A stretch of 64,000 nucleotides of DNA from an uncultured Armatimonadia bacterium (GTDB lineage Bacteria; Armatimonadota; Zipacnadia; CAVVLO01), in the NCBI GenBank assembly GCA_963749155.1, contig CAVVLO010000002.1, forward strand, positions 1,184,001 through 1,248,000, given 5' to 3'. Made by a program: the position numbers and the translations under genes. The notes below the pieces were generated by a model. It did not search any database and had not been told where the DNA came from. It saw only the letters and a program-made list of their open reading frames with translations. Below are positions 35,701 through 43,247 of this stretch, one piece after another. The number at the start of each line of letters is the position of its first letter. The first letter of the stretch is position 1.

Positions 35701-37913
35701 GCACTTTCAACAGCCGAAGTCATCACCGAGGACACCGAATTGCTCGCCCAGTGCGCCGAGCCTCTCCAGCGCGCTCTGGTCCAGGCTGGAATCACCTGCA
35801 CACCGACTCTCGAGGCCGAAGACCACTCTCCTCGTTATTATCGAGTTCGCTTTGTGCTCTCTACGGGCGCCAGTCCCTTGGCAACCAGTCTCCTGAAAGC
35901 TGCAGGAACCAGGGCTACAGCTGCTGCTGATCGCCAGTTGCATACAACTGGTCAGGCCCGGCTGGTCGTGCCCGGCCTGGCAAACAGTCCGACCGTCCCC
36001 TGCATACTGCTGCTTGCCTCTGATCAGACCAGCTTGCGCGCATTGGTAGCTCAGATTGCTGCCGAACTCGCCTCGGGAAGCCTTGTTATCCCTCCCAGTG
36101 CGGTTTACGCAGAGCTTGGAGAAGCCCCCAAGCCCGGCGGCCTGGTGCTGCTCAACCGTTGGAATGCAGGTGCCGCTATCGAACAAGATGGCCTGGTTAC
36201 CCTCACCCTGCTGCGCTCCTCAACCGGTTGGCCTTCGACGACTGGCTACAACCACAATTTCGAAGCCTCCAACTGGACCGAGCGATTCGAGTATGGCTTG
36301 CTTCCCTTCACCACTGATTGGCGCGAGGCCGACGTGGTCCAACTGGCGGACGACTACAACCGGCCGCTGCTTGCTCAGCCCACAGAAGTCCACACGGGGC
36401 CGCTACCGACCGAGCAGAGCTTTGCCCGGCTTGACGCGCCTGGCGCGCTCGTGGCCTCTCTCAAGCCGAGCCGGCTACCAGACCTGCGTCTTCAGTGACT
36501 CACCGGCTGATCCAACACGACTGGCTCTGCGCGCCTGGGACACCACCGGTCGAGGCGTTTCCGGCCAGTTCCAGCTCTTCTTGCCCCTAAAGCAAGCCTC
36601 CAGCGCGAACCTGCTTGAGGAACCACAGACTAGAGCTTCGCTCGATAAAGGAAAACTTCTGATTGACCTGGCCCCTTGCCAGATCGGCACCTGGCTTGCC
36701 GAGTGTGATAGACCAAAACAGCTTGCTACCGGCACTCGGCACCTTGGTGCTACTCAGGATCCCATCCAGCCTGTTTGGGCTCGCTATTGGCAATACTCGA
36801 GTGGCACTTGGGCACTTGGTGGCCAACCAGTCTCGGTTGCGCTGTTTGAGGAGGACGACAACGTTATCGCCTGCCTTACCAATGATCTGCCTGACAAGGC
36901 AGCCGAGGTCGAGCTTGTGTTGCTTACTGGTGATCCAGTCCTGTCAAAGGCGCCTTCTGCTACCTCGCATACGATTCCCGCGCGAGGCCGCCAGGAGATT
37001 CCAGTCGAAGCGCCTGCTGATGTGAAAGTCGTACGCGCCACAATCGAATATGAAGGGCAACAGTATTCCGATACCCTTGTGCGGGGCTCTTTTGACACGC
37101 CGGCTGTCCGTTTTGCACTGTCGGATACCGAAGCCCAGTATGAGGAACTGCTTCTGACCGGCGAGTGGGCCTTCAACCTCACCGACTCACTCGCTGCGGT
37201 GAAGCCTGACTCGCCCCTCAAAGCCGATGCCCAACTGGTACTTGAGTCGTTATTGGGAGGCTCAGGGCTTTGCCGGCAAAGATGGCCGGGCCGTCTATCG
37301 TAGAGAAGTACTTATCCCGCAGACTTTCGCCACGGGCCAGCTTGCTCTGCTGTGTGAGGGGGGAGTTGACGACAAACTTGAGGTCTATCTCAACGGCCAG
37401 CTCGCCGGTCGGTACGATGGCCAGGCCAACCAGCGCTGCTTCATCACGCTCGATACAGCAACTGTGAAGTTCGGTCAGCCCAACCTTATCGCTCTGCGCG
37501 TACTCGACACTGGTGGTGATGGGGGTTTCGCTGGGCCAGTCTTCCTGATGGCAGGTGAACTCGACAGTCTGCTGACCGAAGCCGCTGGCGAGTTGGTGCT
37601 TCACCCCGGCCAGACAGCCCAGTTGCCAATCCAACTGAGCAACACCAATGCCTTCCTGGTAACCGGCGAGCTTCAACTGCTTAGCCCTGTCCAGACCTGG
37701 CCCGGCGCTGCATCCCGAGAGCTTGGCGACCTGGCAATCACCCCTGATGTGCAGCCGATTGTCCTTGCGGCAGGAGAGAGCAAGACCTTCACCTGCCAGG
37801 TGCAAGTGCCCAGTTGGGCCGAACCGGGTACTTACTGGTGCCTTGCCCGTCTGGGCACGATGGGCAGGCTCAGCTATTCAAAGCTACTCCAACTGGTAGT
37901 CGAAGCGAACTAG
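32770..37913 (+). CDS. Large secreted GH38 alpha-mannosidase-like protein, two +1 frameshifts (near 36469 and 37221)
   Basis: HWHYDPVW zinc motif, NDVFGH nucleophile, QHHDAITG. Three consecutive ORFs join by removing one A each; about 1713 aa. C-terminal beta-sandwich (GGVDD..VYLNG). Confidence 0.82.
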
Positions 37914-37934
37914 ACGGTTGCCGACCTGCAAAGC

Positions 37935-37972
37935 AAGAAGGGCCCCGGCGCTTGCCGGAGCCCTTCCTCTTC
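37935..37972. terminator. Probable bidirectional terminator
   Basis: GAAGGGCCCCGGC-GCTT-GCCGGAGCCCTTC between convergent genes. Confidence 0.65.
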
Positions 37973-37994
37973 TACTTTATCGAGTGGGGACAAC

Positions 37995-38645
37995 CTAGAA
38001 ATTCATGTTGTAGCTGACGCCCCAGCCATTTTCATCCGCTTCGAACCAGCCAATTGTAAGGGTCAGTGCGGGCAGGTCGGGATGGGTATAGCGCACGCCC
38101 CAGTTCCAGTCTTCCGAGTCCCACTCGGCGATTGCCTGCAGGCCGAAGTCCCAGATGACCTCGCCGCCAGCGAACAAGGCGTCATACATGCCACCGCCGA
38201 TGCCAGCGCTGAGATTGATTGCTGGTGCCAGTCCACCTTCACTAGGTTGATAGCTGTAGGTGCCGGCCACATACATACTGCGGTCTTCTTCATCCGAGAT
38301 GTCCATTACTCCGACAGCCAGCTTGAGTGGGAGCAAATCTTCGCCAGCAGCATCCTGGATTGGCAACAGGGCTTTGGCAGATAGCACATTGCGTCCATCG
38401 CCACCATTGTAATCGAAGCGAGTATAGGTGACTTCAAATTTGCCATCCAGCCCGAAGGTAGCCCCATACAGGTCAACATCTTCATAAGGTGCCCTGTAAT
38501 AGTTGACCAATAGAGCCCCGTCAGGTGCAACCAGAGCCGTCGGCACAAACAACAAGCCGGTCTGGCCCAGGAAATTCTGTCCGGCAAAGCTAACAGCTGT
38601 CAATCCGAGTACCAGGGCTACTGCAAGTAATAACGAACGCTTCAT
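37995..38645 (-). CDS. YjbH-like outer membrane beta-barrel protein (copy 4)
   Basis: Signal peptide, GQTGLLFVPTA, AVGVMDI, DWNWGVRY, C-terminal Phe. Confidence 0.75.
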   Translation of the reverse strand: MKRSLLLAVALVLGLTAVSFAGQNFLGQTGLLFVPTALVAPDGALLVNYYRAPYEDVDLYGATFGLDGKFEVTYTRFDYNGGDGRNVLSAKALLPIQDAAGEDLLPLKLAVGVMDISDEEDRSMYVAGTYSYQPSEGGLAPAINLSAGIGGGMYDALFAGGEVIWDFGLQAIAEWDSEDWNWGVRYTHPDLPALTLTIGWFEADENGWGVSYNMNF

Positions 38646-38684
38646 CTCGGTTCACTCTCCATCTGGTCGAAATGGTATTGCTCA

Positions 38685-38713
38685 ACTATACCACACACTA
38701 GTCACCTTACCAA
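38685..38713 (-). promoter_or_regulatory. Extended -10 promoter for barrel copy 4
   Basis: Minus strand TTGGTA-N17-TATAGT with TGTGG directly upstream of the -10. Confidence 0.6.
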
Positions 38714-38715
38714 AA

Positions 38716-38750
38716 CAAAAACGCGGACCCCCGTAAGGGTCCGCGTTTTG
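38716..38750 (-). terminator. Rho-independent terminator after barrel copy 3
   Basis: AAAACGCGGACCC-CCGTAA-GGGTCCGCGTTTT. Confidence 0.85.
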
Positions 38751-38770
38751 ACTACAGGTTGCTGAACTGG

Positions 38771-39448
38771 CTAGAAAGCCTGGTTGTAAGTGATAGAGAA
38801 AACGTCAGTTTCCCAGACATCGCTATAACCGATGGTCAGCTCGGGCATTGTATTCGGATTATACTCCAGGCCCCAGTTCCAATCTCGGTCGCTTTCGCCA
38901 GTGTCCAGCTTCTCGTACCAGGCGGCGAAGTCGCCCAGATCAGCCTTTATCGCATAAAAGACATCGTCGAACATCTCGTTACCAGTTCCCAGTGAGAACT
39001 CCAGGGTCGAGATAGCATCGCCAATAACTGGCTCACTCAGTTCGTAAGTGTAGGTGCCTACTACGAACCAACTACGAGCCCAGAAGTCATCAAACAGGTC
39101 GCCTACGCCCACCGCCAACTTAAAGGGCAAGTCGAACTCGGGGTCGTATTTAGTTAGGTCGAGTTGGTATTTGGCCGTGAAAACATCGTCATCGCCCCAT
39201 ACACCATCGAACTTGCTGTACCCTAGCTCTAAGTTGTTCCAGCCAATCCCCAGGTTCCAGATATTGAAGCTGTCTCCTGTATCAACATAACTGTATTGCC
39301 CGGTCACGCTCATACTTGGGATGACATTGGCACTTGGCACAGTGCTATAGCCAGTCGTTCCGTACCAGGTTATGGGCACTGCGCCGGCAGTTAGCATAAC
39401 TCCGACGAGTGCAACCACTACTACAAGGAAAACCAGCTTGCCTTTCAT
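38771..39448 (-). CDS. YjbH-like outer membrane beta-barrel protein (copy 3)
   Basis: MKGKLV signal peptide, GTTGYSTVPSA, AVGVGDL, DWNWGLEY, terminal YNQAF. Confidence 0.75.
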   Translation of the reverse strand: MKGKLVFLVVVVALVGVMLTAGAVPITWYGTTGYSTVPSANVIPSMSVTGQYSYVDTGDSFNIWNLGIGWNNLELGYSKFDGVWGDDDVFTAKYQLDLTKYDPEFDLPFKLAVGVGDLFDDFWARSWFVVGTYTYELSEPVIGDAISTLEFSLGTGNEMFDDVFYAIKADLGDFAAWYEKLDTGESDRDWNWGLEYNPNTMPELTIGYSDVWETDVFSITYNQAF

Positions 39449-39526
39449 ACTGCCTCCCGCGTTTTGAGGACGCCTCCTGTTGTATTGAGCCAGCCGTCGA
39501 GCCCACAAGCTCCGGCTTCAACTCCT
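39449..39526 (-). promoter_or_regulatory. Conserved structured 5' leader, copy B
   Basis: Near-identical to 40321-40398; nested hairpin with compensatory changes. Confidence 0.6.
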
Positions 39527-39547
39527 ACGGTACAGGTATCTGAAATC

Positions 39548-39558
39548 ACTATACCACA
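39548..39558 (-). promoter_or_regulatory. Extended -10 promoter for barrel copy 3
   Basis: Minus strand TGTGGTATAGT, identical to 38685-38695. Confidence 0.55.
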
Positions 39559-39580
39559 CGAAGCCTGAGTCCCCTGCCAA

Positions 39581-39612
39581 GAAAAAGCGCGGACCCCCGT
39601 AAGGGCCCGCGC
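39581..39612 (-). terminator. Rho-independent terminator after barrel copy 2
   Basis: GCGCGGACCC-CCGTAA-GGGCCCGCGC with a T-run on the minus strand; same loop as 38716-38750. Confidence 0.8.
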
Positions 39613-39636
39613 TCGGTACTACGCTCGAAATCCTGC

Positions 39637-40320
39637 TCAGAAGGCCAGGTTGTAGGCGGCGCTGAAGATGTCGGTGTCCCAGGTATCACTGTAGCCAACA
39701 GTCAGACCAGGCAGTGAATTGGGATTGTATTCGACACCCCAGTTCCAATCGCGGTCGCTTTCGCCACCTTCAATTTTCTCATACCAGGCGGCAAAATCGC
39801 CCAGGTCGGCCTTGATGCCGTAGAAGACATCGTCATACATCTCGTTGCCGGTACCCAGCGAGAACTCCAGGGTCGGGATTACGTCACCGATGATCGGTGA
39901 GCCAAGCTCGTAGCAATAGGTTCCTACGACATACCAGCTGCACCGAAGCCGCTGTTGTCGAAGATGTCGCCTACGCCAACGGCTACCTTTATGGGCAGAT
40001 CGAACTCGGGGTCGTATTTCGAGATGTCGAGTTGATACTTGGCCGAGAAGTAGTCCTCGTCACCGAAGGCGCCACTCCACTTGCTGTAGGTCGACTTCGA
40101 AGCCGTTCCAGCCGGCGCCGATGCTGTAGCAAGATCGATGCCGCCCTCCGCGTCGATGTAGTTGTACTGTCCGGTCGCGGTCATGCTTGGGATGACGTTG
40201 GCATCCGGCATGGTGCCGCAGGCCAGTCGCGCCACCGAAGGTCAGGGGGCCTGCGCCAGCGATAAATGCAACGCCGACAAGTGCAGCCATTACTGCGAGT
40301 AGAACAAGTTTGCCTTTCAT
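39637..40320 (-). pseudogene. YjbH-like beta-barrel (copy 2), about four single-base indels (pseudogene or sequence errors)
   Basis: Pieces in different frames align colinearly with copy 3 (MKGKLV...PDANVIPSM...KYDPEFDLP...DWNWGVEY...YNLAF). The net 684 nt is a multiple of 3. Confidence 0.7.
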
Positions 40321-40398
40321 AGTGCCTCCCGCGTTTATAGGACGCCTCCTGTTATTGAGGGTTAGCCGTCGAGCCCGCAAGCTCCGGCTTCAACCCCT
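40321..40398 (-). promoter_or_regulatory. Conserved structured 5' leader, copy A
   Basis: GGGTT-GA-AGCCG-GAGC-TTGCGG-GCTC-GA-CGGCT-AACCC, then CAGGAGGCGTCCT...ACGCGGGAGG. Confidence 0.6.
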
Positions 40399-40399
40399 G

Positions 40400-41065
40400 C
40401 TAGAAACCTTTAAGTAGTGAGTACGTAACCCCGATCAGCGTGTTATCGCGCGCGTCGGCAAGCGTGAACCTCAGGCCTTCGACACTCGGTAGGCTGTATT
40501 CGATTCCCCAGTTCCAGTCGTCGCTGTCATATTCGCCGATCAGCCCCAGGCCATTGTTCCAGCCGAGTTCCACGCCGTAGAAGATGCCATCGAAAAAGCC
40601 CCCACCTATGCCCAGGTTGGCATTAAAGGTCGGGATTGAATCACTCAGCTTTGCGCCCAATTTGATCGGCATCGACCCAACTACATAGAAGCTCTGATCG
40701 ATTTCATCGGTCAGGTCGATAACGCCAACGGCTACATCGAAAGGCAGTACGCGCGCGCCCAAACCACTAAGAGGAAGATACTGGTATTTCAGGTCGAGTA
40801 GGGTTTCGGTGCCATCTCCCTCGAGTTTAGCGATGCTCCCCTCAAACGTCATGAATCCGCCAGTCAGCGAATAGGCTTTTGTGTCGCCAGGGTCATCTGT
40901 GAAATAGGCGCTTCCCATAAAGCCCAGCGTGCCAGGGATTTCAGCCGTAGGGGTAAGCAGCAGGCCAGTCGGTCCGAAATAGCTCTGCCGACCCGCCTGA
41001 GCGCCAACTGCAAGCACTACCAGCAGACCGAGCACAGCTAATCCAACCAGCGGGGTTCTTCTCAT
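40400..41065 (-). CDS. YjbH-like outer membrane beta-barrel protein (copy 1)
   Basis: Signal peptide, GPTGLLLTPTA, AVGVIDL, DWNWGIEY, terminal Phe. Confidence 0.75.
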   Translation of the reverse strand: MRRTPLVGLAVLGLLVVLAVGAQAGRQSYFGPTGLLLTPTAEIPGTLGFMGSAYFTDDPGDTKAYSLTGGFMTFEGSIAKLEGDGTETLLDLKYQYLPLSGLGARVLPFDVAVGVIDLTDEIDQSFYVVGSMPIKLGAKLSDSIPTFNANLGIGGGFFDGIFYGVELGWNNGLGLIGEYDSDDWNWGIEYSLPSVEGLRFTLADARDNTLIGVTYSLLKGF

Positions 41066-41074
41066 TTGCTTTGT

Positions 41075-41851
41075 CTAGTCCTCCGTCAGCTCAAGCAGCA
41101 TCTGAGCATTCTTTACTGCCTGGCCCGCATAATGGTTATTGAAGTATACCAGTGTTAGTTGGGTTGTGGCCTCTACCTGCCGTATCTTGGGCAACCATTC
41201 ACGAAGTTCTTCCATATTGTAAAGGTAATCGTAACGTTCCCAGGCTTCGGTGTGATGCCACCATTTCGCGCTGTTGCGCCCGTGAAAGCGTATATACCCA
41301 ACATTGGAAGTGGCTCTGGCTTCAGGTGGCATCAATCCCTTCAATTGGGGTTCATCCACCGAACAAAAACCGACCTTGTGCCTTGTCATCCACTCAAAGA
41401 CGCTTTCGCGCATCCATTCCTGGTTGCGGAACTCAAATACGAGAGGCAGGTCCCCCAGTTCGCCGACAAGCCTCTCGAGAAGCTCTTTCGCAGCTTTCTC
41501 TGGTTTCAGCTTCCAGGGAAACTGACAAAGTACCGCTTGCAGTCCGCCAGCTTCCACCAGTGGCGAAAGCTCCTGTCTATATTTGACCATTAGGTCGCCG
41601 AAAGTTTCAGTTTCGACCTCATGGGTCAGCCCTTTATAAGCCTTGACGCTAAAACCAAATCCATCTGGCGCCTTCGCAAGCAGTCGCTCGAACAGTCTTG
41701 GCCCAGTCAAGGCATAGAAAGTCGAGTTTATCTCCACCGATTTGAACTGCTGGGCATATAGGGAAAACATTTCGCCCTTTTTCGTGCCCTCAGGATAGAC
41801 TTTGCCCACCCAGTCGTCATAACTGAAGCCCGAAGTGCCGACGACCAGCAT
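41075..41851 (-). CDS. DUF72 domain protein
   Basis: GTSGFSY, VEINSTFY, EFRN, YIRFHGRN, YFNNH. Confidence 0.93.
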   Translation of the reverse strand: MLVVGTSGFSYDDWVGKVYPEGTKKGEMFSLYAQQFKSVEINSTFYALTGPRLFERLLAKAPDGFGFSVKAYKGLTHEVETETFGDLMVKYRQELSPLVEAGGLQAVLCQFPWKLKPEKAAKELLERLVGELGDLPLVFEFRNQEWMRESVFEWMTRHKVGFCSVDEPQLKGLMPPEARATSNVGYIRFHGRNSAKWWHHTEAWERYDYLYNMEELREWLPKIRQVEATTQLTLVYFNNHYAGQAVKNAQMLLELTED

Positions 41852-41889
41852 CTTGCGTCCACTCCCTTGCCAGCAACTGCCAGCCAAAT

Positions 41890-41920
41890 AAAAAACCCGG
41901 GCGTTTGCCCGGGTTTTTCT
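41890..41920 (-). terminator. Rho-independent terminator after ugd
   Basis: AAAAACCCGGGC-GTTT-GCCCGGGTTTTT. Confidence 0.85.
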
Positions 41921-41942
41921 TTCGACATAAAGCAGGCGAGGC

Positions 41943-43247
41943 CTATCTGCCTATCGCGTAATACTCCAGTTTGGCGGTTTCCATCGATTCTTCATCATAG
42001 AAATTTCGCCCATCGAAGACGATTGGCTGCCGCATAAGCCCTCTGAGGCGCTCTAAATCCAGGTGCCGGAATACTTCCCACTCAGTAACCAGAGCCACTG
42101 CATCTACGCCCTCGGCAACTTCATAGGGCCCTGTGCAATATTCAATCTGCGGGAAGACTGCCTTCGCGGTTTCCATCGCCTCGGGATCATACGCCTTGAC
42201 TATTGCCCCCTCTGACAGCAGCAGATGGGCTACCTCCAGCGCGCGAGAGAACCGCACATCATCGGTCTTGGGCTTGAAAGCCAGCCCCAGCAAGCCTATC
42301 TTCTTGCCTGCCAGATCGCCCAGCCGGCGCCGGATCTTGTCTACAAAGAGCTGTACCATCCCTTCATTTACTGCGAAGCCCGAGGTTACCATATCCTTGC
42401 TAACCCCGTATTCTTCAAGCGTGTTGATGAAGGCCAGCACATCTTTTGGAAAACACGATCCGCCATATCCAAGCCCTGCCCCGAGGAAGGCCGACCCGAT
42501 GCGCGGATCATAGCCCATCGCCCTGATGACTTCCTGGATGTCGGCCCCTGCCCGCTCGCAAAGCTGAGCCAGCACATTGGCGAAGGAGATCTTGGTTGCG
42601 AGAAAGACGTTGCAGGCGTATTTGCAAAGCTCGGCCGACTCGTTGCTCGTGACGATCATTGGCCGCTCGAAAGGCGCATAAATCTGCACCAACTCCATCG
42701 CAGCTTCCTGGGTCGGCGCGCCGATGACTATCCGGATGGGATTGACCGCGTCTTCTACCGCGGCGCCTTCGCGCAGGAATTCCGGGTTGCTCGCGACCTC
42801 AAACTCGGCATCCGGGCCAACTACCTCGCGGATGGTCCGCCTTACACGCGCGGCTGTACCCACAGGTACTGTGCTCTTGCAGACCACGATGCGATACTCG
42901 TCCATCACCTCGGCGATTTCTCTGGCGACGCCAAATACCGCGCTCAGGTCTGCCCGGTGGGTTTCAGGATCGGTAGGGGTGCCTACCGCGATGAAGATAA
43001 TACGCGCCTGTTTGACCGCGGCTTTCAGGTCGGTGGAAAACTCCAGCCTGCCTCGAGCATACGTGCGCGCGACTATCTCTTCGAGGCCTGGCTCATAGAT
43101 AGGCAATTTGCCCTTTTTCAAGCCCTCGATTTTGCCCGCATCGTTGTCGACGCAGATAACATGATGCTTTCGGTCGGCCAGTACGGCGCCCGTTACGAGG
43201 CCTACATAGCCGGTGCCTACGACTGCAATCTCAGCCAAGCCAGACAC
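41943..43247 (-). CDS. ugd: UDP-glucose/GDP-mannose 6-dehydrogenase
   Basis: GTGYVG, KSTVPVG, NPEFLREG, GYGGSCFPKD, LAFKP. The true start may be TTG at 43238. Confidence 0.95.
   Translation of the reverse strand: MSGLAEIAVVGTGYVGLVTGAVLADRKHHVICVDNDAGKIEGLKKGKLPIYEPGLEEIVARTYARGRLEFSTDLKAAVKQARIIFIAVGTPTDPETHRADLSAVFGVAREIAEVMDEYRIVVCKSTVPVGTAARVRRTIREVVGPDAEFEVASNPEFLREGAAVEDAVNPIRIVIGAPTQEAAMELVQIYAPFERPMIVTSNESAELCKYACNVFLATKISFANVLAQLCERAGADIQEVIRAMGYDPRIGSAFLGAGLGYGGSCFPKDVLAFINTLEEYGVSKDMVTSGFAVNEGMVQLFVDKIRRRLGDLAGKKIGLLGLAFKPKTDDVRFSRALEVAHLLLSEGAIVKAYDPEAMETAKAVFPQIEYCTGPYEVAEGVDAVALVTEWEVFRHLDLERLRGLMRQPIVFDGRNFYDEESMETAKLEYYAIGR

Follow-up and report, generated by a model that had tools for sequence, protein, structure and literature searches.

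This study examined a window of 64,000 nt from an uncultured Armatimonadia bacterium (assembly GCA_963749155.1, contig CAVVLO010000002.1, positions 1,184,001 to 1,248,000 of the forward strand), the minus strand of which carries an array encoding four paralogous small signal-peptide proteins of 216-225 aa, hereafter barrel copies 1 to 4. Two leaders of approximately 78 nt, leader A (40398-40321) and leader B (39526-39449), directly precede the ATG codons of copy 2 (40320) and copy 3 (39448), respectively. A sequence-only reading had proposed these leaders as a cis-regulatory RNA with a common hairpin; their sequences and coordinates were as claimed, and the element lies on the mRNA sense strand, upstream of the true ribosome-binding site. 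Our results revealed that the leader element is real and is probably under constraint. It is probably a local element rather than a new RNA family, and nothing found here sets it apart from a lineage-specific leader of a known functional kind. The array and its leaders are arranged as follows, in window coordinates:

40400-41065, minus strand: barrel copy 1, 221 aa, the stop codon of which abuts hairpin A.
40358-40397, minus strand: hairpin A, with outer stem GGGGUU:AACCCU, 5′ GA bulge, AGCCG:CGGCU, 3′ GA bulge, GAGCU:GGCUC, and loop UGCG.
40321-40357, minus strand: linker and ribosome-binding module A, with AGGAGG (40350-40345), UCCU (40342-40339), the true Shine-Dalgarno (SD) sequence GGGAGG (40330-40325), and ATG (40320-40318).
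39637-40320, minus strand: barrel copy 2, interrupted in assembly GCA_963749155.1.
39482-39528, minus strand: hairpin B, with outer stem GAGUU:GGCUC (39524-39487), a possible 3-bp extension GUA:UAC, and the core of hairpin A except for loop UGUG.
39449-39481, minus strand: linker and ribosome-binding module B, with AGGAGG (39478-39473), UCCU (39470-39467), GGGAGG (39458-39453), and ATG (39448-39446).
38771-39448, minus strand: barrel copy 3, 225 aa, with a signal peptide and no Pfam family.
37995-38645, minus strand: barrel copy 4, 216 aa, with a weak N-terminal match to YjbH.

Nothing above the Pfam threshold was found for any of the four proteins; the match of the copy 4 N-terminus to YjbH was below threshold (18.9 bits; cut-off, 24). 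The neighbors of copy 3 in a protein atlas were "Porin family protein" clusters and a YjbH-containing cluster in which Armatimonadota is the commonest phylum. Judged from their sequences, the four array proteins are likely outer-membrane barrels.

Separate folding of leaders A and B reproduced the proposed bulged fold, yielding the same architecture in both, in which the outer stem comprises 5-6 bp and the loop reads UGYG. Folding energies of the 49-nt hairpins were -21.2 kcal/mol (A) and -20.0 kcal/mol (B), with z scores of -2.63 and -2.57; 2 and 3 of 200 shuffled sequences, respectively, were as stable. Such stability alone is not rare, because 69 of the 1104 GGAGG-type starts in the genome had a minimum free energy of -20 kcal/mol or lower in the equivalent 49 nt. 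Hairpin A starts 2 nt past the stop codon of copy 1, and leader A is thus intercistronic. The hairpins are not intrinsic terminators or attenuators: no U run follows them (CAAUAAC or AAUACAAC follows instead), both were absent from the terminator scan, and a contig of an RNA library runs across hairpin A. A kink-turn, in which a three-nucleotide bulge is flanked by facing tandem sheared G.A pairs, was rejected as well, because the GA bulges are on different strands, separated by 5 bp.

In an ungapped alignment, leaders A and B differed in 13 of 83 columns (12 of 78 within the leader proper). The differences clustered in the 3′ strand of the outer stem, the linker, the two loops, and the spacer between the SD sequence and ATG, and, apart from one terminal G-U, all 13 were unpaired or pairing-neutral. 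In the outer stem, G6-C41 of A is replaced by A6-U41 in B, and U8-A39 and U9-A38 are replaced by U-G pairs; these are the one G-C to A-U and two U-A to U-G changes of the sequence-only reading, to which the absence in B of the terminal G4-U43 pair must be added. A gapped alternative for the 3′ strand and linker introduces two 2-nt indels, in which case the double change becomes a register shift compensated with the help of the G-to-A change. The outer stem survives under either alignment, in the most divergent patch of the leader, and its G-U pairs are possible on the sense RNA strand only. The bulges and inner stems were invariant as described, the 28-nt core being identical at 27 positions and differing only in the loop.

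The origin of the two copies was apparent from an alignment of 40420-39527 with 39540-38640, which revealed a single tandem unit of approximately 870 bp comprising leader, barrel gene, terminator, and promoter. The remaining elements of the two units are the following:

39585-39614, minus strand: intrinsic terminator after copy 2, paralogous to the one after copy 3.
39548-39556, minus strand: extended -10-like box TGGTATAGT, identified by eye upstream of leader B.
38749-38718, minus strand: intrinsic terminator after copy 3.
38713-38685, minus strand: copy 4 promoter; the copy 4 leader is unrelated to leaders A and B and is unstructured.

Homology between the units starts at the 5′ boundary of the hairpin and extends across the gene, the terminator, and the TGGTATAGT box, ending a few bases past the box. 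This alignment indicates that leaders A and B are paralogous copies from an old tandem duplication in one lineage, and not two independent occurrences. Both leaders put forward as evidence thus exist, but they belong to one duplication unit and do not count independently. The unit boundaries point to an ancestral order of copy 1, hairpin, one barrel gene, terminator, and copy 4 promoter, and to an intercistronic origin of the hairpin just past the copy 1 stop codon; the place of hairpin B behind a promoter would be an accident of the duplication.

The leader was conserved well beyond the neutral level: 66 of 78 positions (85%) were identical between A and B, compared with 35 of the 66 four-fold degenerate sites of copies 2 and 3 (12/18 in codons 1-33, 11/18 in the middle, and 12/30 at the 3′ end) and 449 of 654 nt over the genes as a whole. 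The signal-peptide codons beside the leader (70 of 99 nt identical) also fell below it. Conservation was arranged in near-perfect blocks of 27/28, 14/14, and 14/14, and the patches between them differed at 8/10 and 2/2 positions. The unpaired positions of the hairpin differed at one of eight, which is not significantly below neutral. When alignment columns were shuffled and a two-sequence consensus was folded, the hairpin scored z = -3.55 (1/1000) and the whole leader z = -3.59 (2/1000), and the SD part alone scored z = -2.06 (35/1000). When the observed substitutions were placed at random on leader A, 95 of 3000 trials preserved the folding energy of the hairpin and 41 of 3000 that of the whole leader; by the criterion of free refolding, the hairpin count rose to 305 of 3000. 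Both the shuffles and the substitution trials agree with the claim that the differences between the leaders spare pairs. The structure-preserving divergence is only modestly significant and amounts to a single comparison; it is the retention of the leader between two old paralogues, not the stability of the hairpin, that exceeds chance.

Variation between strains was analyzed by using contigs, not reads, and 40 of 195 differences were listed. These all belong to X1, up to position 39768; because 40 listed and 57 remaining differences make up the 97 reported, X1 was taken as complete to that position. The 4733-nt contig of X1 differed from the window at 5 positions in 37900-39529, 92 in 39530-40067, and 2 in 40222-41026, and 150 other letters replaced 40068-40221. 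In leader B, X1 carried changes only at 39449, in the spacer, and at 39458, where GCGGGAGG becomes GCAGGAGG and the U-G of UCCU:GGGA becomes U-A; hairpin B was intact. X2 lacked, among other differences, 14 nt from 39525, which directly adjoin hairpin B on its 5′ side, and a single G from the GGGG run of leader A. The X3 contigs leave the leaders uncovered. Among the differences listed, the strain variants thus spared the hairpin.

The body of copy 2, together with its terminator and promoter (39530-40222), was approximately 17% divergent or replaced between otherwise near-identical strains, whereas the flanks showed 5 differences in 1630 nt on one side and 2 in 805 nt on the other. This segment looks like cassette-type diversification of a surface protein, bounded by modules of leader and signal peptide. 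The locus itself, a four-gene barrel array with a copy 2 body that differs or is replaced to this extent between strains, may be more interesting than the leader.

These data bear on the explanation that the leader has no RNA function, the 5′ ends of the repeat units having been homogenized by gene conversion or recombination and the hairpin being a duplicated accident. The leaders lie in a tandem repeat, and the four-fold identity is higher beside the leader (12/18) than at the 3′ end (12/30), as a 5′ conversion tract would leave. The locus is a mosaic between strains, with X1 breakpoints bordering hairpin B on its 5′ side and just past the signal peptide of copy 2, and equally stable hairpins occur at 69 of 1104 comparable positions. 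However, homogenization is expected to produce evenly high identity, whereas the leader is conserved in blocks with divergent patches between them; moreover, its differences spare base pairs, and its 85% identity exceeds that of the adjoining signal-peptide codons (70/99). We regard gene conversion as the main rival to the reading favored below, unlikely but still of real weight.

We further analyzed the ribosome-binding modules. The motif CAGGAGGCGUCCU..AAACGCGGGAGGCA was common to both leaders, as claimed. In both copies, the true SD sequence GGGAGG lies 4 nt before the annotated ATG, and the upstream AGGAGG lies 24 nt before it, with no ATG, GTG, or TTG between AGGAGG and the true SD sequence. 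A second SD-like motif was present at most 40 nt upstream at 76 of the 1114 GGAGG-type starts of the genome, this set consisting of open reading frames of at least 100 aa preceded by GGAGG N3-9. The sequence-only reading had proposed mutually exclusive AGGA:UCCU and GCGU:ACGC pairings next to the true ribosome-binding site, and this proposal did not prove robust. In folds of the 83-nt leaders, both helices had a pair probability of 0.00, forcing them cost 3.6-5.8 kcal/mol, and UCCU paired instead with GGGA of the true SD sequence (0.91-1.00 in both copies). With 30 nt of coding sequence included, the ensemble split among three or more alternatives within approximately 1 kcal/mol: UCCU:GGGA decreased to 0.12-0.56, leader A showed AGGA:UCCU at 0.39-0.44 versus UCCU:GGGA at 0.55-0.56, and all three candidate helices in leader B remained at or below 0.28. 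In three of the four folds, GCGU:ACGC had a probability of 0.00.

A cis-acting switch (for example, a thermometer), in which UCCU would alternate between the decoy AGGAGG and the true SD sequence and thereby gate initiation, would account for the strong UCCU:GGGA pairing in both 83-nt leaders and for the coexistence of AGGA:UCCU and UCCU:GGGA in leader A with coding sequence. The X1 variant at 39458 keeps the helix by its change from U-G to U-A, but the same change also gives a stronger SD sequence. The helices comprise just 4 bp, GCGU:ACGC was absent from three of the four folds, the SD part performed weakly in the column shuffles (z = -2.06, 35/1000), and, in leader B with coding sequence, no helix exceeded 0.28 and the SD sequence paired with signal-peptide codons. 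Furthermore, no aptamer-like conserved pocket and no Rfam match were found. Helices of 4 bp in a flat predicted landscape are ambiguous, providing neither proof nor exclusion of a switch; we consider one very unlikely.

The invariance of the core pointed to another explanation, in which the leader would be the site of a trans-acting factor (CsrA, another RNA-binding protein, or a small RNA) that controls the translation of copies 2 and 3. The core, including both GA bulges, is invariant (27/28), and only the outer stem drifts, with compensation, which is typical of protein-binding hairpins. As the suggestion of a CsrA-type GGA target requires, two GGA motifs are present at a spacing of 20 nt, one being part of the SD sequence, and the genome encodes CsrA (80.9 bits); the flagellin leader beside csrA likewise has two GGAGG-like motifs, approximately 27 nt apart. 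However, csrA sits in a fliW-csrA-flagellin module, and the established target of the Bacillus module is the flagellin mRNA. GGA occupied stems or the open linker, and a hairpin loop in no predicted fold; second SD-like motifs occur commonly (at 76 of 1114 starts), no further hairpin copy in the genome suggests a regulon, and the unpaired positions of the hairpin (1/8 different) were not significantly below neutral. The part of the CsrA suggestion that stands is therefore the presence of the motifs and the protein; the context of csrA and the never-looped GGA argue against it. On these sequence features, control by such a factor seems rather unlikely. The fliW-csrA-flagellin gene order itself was observed at 406487-409639 of contig C2 in the same genome (G000; L148); the two motifs of its flagellin leader are as expected for a Bacillus-type CsrA-FliW partner switch.

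A further explanation, which we consider decidedly unlikely, is that a dedicated RNA-binding protein or small RNA recognizes the hairpin and its two invariant GA bulges as a lineage-specific site, coordinating or choosing among paralogous barrel genes whose bodies are swapped between strains as leader-bounded cassettes. If true, the leader would be a new cis-regulatory RNA linked to the diversification of surface proteins in a phylum that has received little study.

The possibilities that the leader is coding, as an N-terminal extension from an in-frame TTG in the loop, or that its inverted repeat is a DNA operator were rejected as highly improbable. In both copies, an open frame runs from the TTG codon (40380 and 39508, respectively) in phase with the ATG, and the hairpin is an imperfect inverted repeat in DNA. 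However, six of the seven differing extension codons alter the amino acid, a strong SD sequence precedes ATG and none precedes TTG, and all seven close relative proteins start with MKG. The repeat arms carry offset 2-nt insertions and the outer stem relies on G-U, which fits RNA pairing and not a symmetric operator.

No relatives of the leader were found in the searches that we conducted. The Rfam comparison suggested in the sequence-only reading (Rfam 15, 37500-42000, both strands, E <= 10) returned 22 matches, none of which overlapped either leader; the nearest, at 39581-39612 (E = 5.6), was the terminator after copy 2. A search of the own 4.17-Mb genome with the 28-nt core, permitting up to three mismatches, recovered the two known copies only, and the reversed control recovered none. 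Covariance models of the leader (R1) and the hairpin (R2) were run against 150 genomes, own genome included. Matches at E <= 1 per genome occurred in 17 genomes, with a best foreign score of 27.6 bits, and no barrel homologue was present at the nine examined R1/R2 loci (8 of the 17 foreign matches and a third own-genome match with E = 0.35). Applied unfiltered to 32 loci (27 with distant barrel homologues and 5 from metagenomes), R2 scored at best 19.3 bits, on the wrong strand; three 12-bit R2 matches were mere SD and start regions. A scan of approximately 185,000 species genomes with the pattern AGCCGGAGC N4-8 GCTCGACGGCT identified 90 stretches, and all 80 that were examined sit within open frames of at least 651 nt; inspection by eye found the outer stem, linker, and SD module in none of these 80, and Rfam matched only tRNAs located elsewhere at 20 pattern loci. 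Eight of the loci, from Acidobacteriaceae/Acidobacteriota (L062, L075, L079, L080, L083, L085, L100, and L120), shared the same 9+11-nt core with UCGG:CCGA flanks of their own. As an RNA relative this stretch was rejected, because it lies inside an open frame of 762-1935 nt and is most likely conserved coding sequence.

Searches centered on the barrel genes gave a similar picture. A protein scan of metagenome contigs yielded five loci with matches of 23-30 residues only, a close barrel homologue was found in the own genome only among 79 genomes of the class, and a BLAST comparison of leader B with 401 genomes from the phylum returned only partial matches of 22-34 nt. The organism was the sole member of its family among the genomes compared. 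The best barrel homologues in 60 relatives were 29-37% identical and were single genes, not arrays; the four-gene array is thus peculiar to this lineage among the genomes searched. Many of the distant homologues (L004-L031) start at GTG six bases after GGAGGTG, in an upstream frame reading "..LEVLGV..". Public data contain seven close relative proteins (P0001-P0007), 96-62% identical, three of them copy-3-like and four like an intact copy 2. The leader element is present in no second locus searched, is absent from Rfam, and is lineage-specific among the genomes searched; the covariation is thus confined to leaders A and B.

The promoter of leader B and the transcription of leader A were then considered. 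A TTGGCA sequence lies 21 nt further upstream of TGGTATAGT, which is too far for a -35 element, and the promoter consensus scan did not report TGGTATAGT because no -35 element occurs at 16-18 nt. From the position of the box, a transcription start site is predicted near 39541, leaving approximately 12-16 nt before hairpin B. In RNA library X16, a 151-nt contig covered 40277-40425 without any difference, extending from the end of copy 1 through hairpin A into copy 2. It is a weak hint of read-through across hairpin A, DNA contamination of such libraries being possible.

On the basis of these findings, we tentatively favor, at somewhat below even confidence, the reading that the leader acts as a constitutive module for the stability and translation of the mRNA of an abundant surface barrel protein. 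Ribonucleases encoded in the genome include RNase J (480.9 bits; cut-off, 400), RNase Y (719.6 bits; cut-off, 454), and RNase E/G (two frames, at 178.6 and 149.3 bits), and the presence of both a stem-loop and a start-less AGGAGG in such a genome is what favors a role in stability and in standby binding of the 30S subunit. The stable bulged stem-loop and the start-less upstream AGGAGG would shield the 5′ part of the message from 5′-end-dependent decay by RNase J or RNase E/G, and would hold the 30S subunit near the true SD sequence GGGAGG. Leader A, which lies between cistrons, would act after read-through or processing, protecting the cistron downstream of it and enabling its translation, and in leader B the duplication would have set the module approximately 12-16 nt behind a promoter.

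Several points weigh against this reading of a stability and translation module. Its support consists of sequence and predicted folds, and the evidence amounts to two paralogous copies and a few strain variants. The predicted single-stranded tail of 12-16 nt ahead of hairpin B is longer than is usual for 5′-terminal protectors, and leader A would have no 5′ end of its own unless the transcript were processed. The leaders of copies 1 and 4, which belong to the same gene family, are unstructured and lack the hairpin (z = -0.11 and 0.06), and the upstream regions of distant homologues had a mean z of -0.36, with 1 of 12 below -2 (12 of 27 loci scored; 15 had no identifiable start). The core is invariant in sequence and not merely in pairing, which could reflect specific recognition or gene conversion. 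Finally, the true SD sequence was mostly paired with pyrimidine-rich signal-peptide codons in both copies (probability unpaired, 0.06-0.12), and a restrained message fits this prediction better than a maximally expressed one. If functional, the element would be one of the earliest leader elements to be described from outer-membrane protein genes of a largely uncultured phylum. In practical terms its reach is small, comprising one locus and one lineage, with no ligand and no wider family.

In the window, copy 2 is disrupted by two frameshifts (+1 near 40222 and -1 near 39945), and a TGA stands in frame at 40060-40062. Behind 39944, X1 carries an additional base, and its replacement of 154 letters by 150 ends at 40222. 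Intact copy 2 counterparts of 225-226 aa are known from other samples (P0004-P0007), and residues 1-33 of P0005 equal residues 1-33 of the window copy 2. The breaks represent either a strain-specific pseudogene or a mixed-strain assembly artifact. The RNase E/G domain of the same genome (contig C5, 140720-141527) likewise matched as two pieces that overlap but occupy different open frames (149.3 and 178.6 bits); the split possibly reflects a frameshift or an assembly indel error and bears on the trust to be placed in the copy 2 frameshifts. Two genes precede the array:

43247-41943, minus strand: UDP-glucose dehydrogenase gene, followed by a terminator.
41851-41075, minus strand: DUF72 gene.

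Sub-threshold Rfam matches to Leu_leader, BSnc120, and MicC were observed at 41886-41925 on both strands; they were rejected as candidates because they coincide with the strong bidirectional terminator hairpin between these two genes.

A review of mRNA stability (PMC3997798) cites the papers on the aprE stem-loop and STAB-SD. The literature covered comprised STAB-SD, mRNA stability, and RNase J. Among known systems, Bacillus hag is an example of a CsrA-regulated leader with two GGA sites. The present leaders resemble CsrA leaders in having two GGA motifs approximately 20 nt apart, one overlapping the SD sequence, in a genome that encodes CsrA; unlike CsrA leaders, they are predicted to hold GGA outside the hairpin loops, and the CsrA of this genome is part of a fliW-csrA-flagellin module. 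The STAB-SD of Bacillus thuringiensis cryIIIA, reportedly described by Agaisse and Lereclus in 1996, provides a counterpart for the AGGAGG, an SD-like polypurine in the 5′ untranslated region that precedes the true ribosome-binding site and lacks a start codon at initiation distance. STAB-SD lies a long way from the start codon, whereas the motif here is only 24 nt upstream of ATG and is followed by a complementary UCCU; its function is putative here, and the likeness is tempered by the frequency of a second SD-like motif in this genome (76/1114).

The Bacillus subtilis aprE leader is said to combine a 5′ stem-loop with a ribosome-binding site as an mRNA stabilizer (Hambraeus et al. in 2002, reportedly). 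It has no sequence relation to the leaders described here, in which the predicted 5′ tail is 12-16 nt, one copy is intercistronic, and a stabilizing effect is putative. The 5′ untranslated region of Escherichia coli ompA reportedly carries stem-loops as well (Emory, Bouvet and Belasco in 1992; Arnold et al. in 1998), and the ompA protector lies at the extreme 5′ end. Its sequence and architecture are unrelated to those of the bulged hairpins found here, with no Rfam or covariance-model relation, but in both cases a leader hairpin precedes the gene of an abundant outer-membrane beta-barrel protein. If functional, the present element would combine this setting with the logic of a Bacillus-style 5′ stabilizer, a stem-loop and a decoy SD sequence, in a diderm in which RNase J, RNase Y, and RNase E/G occur together.

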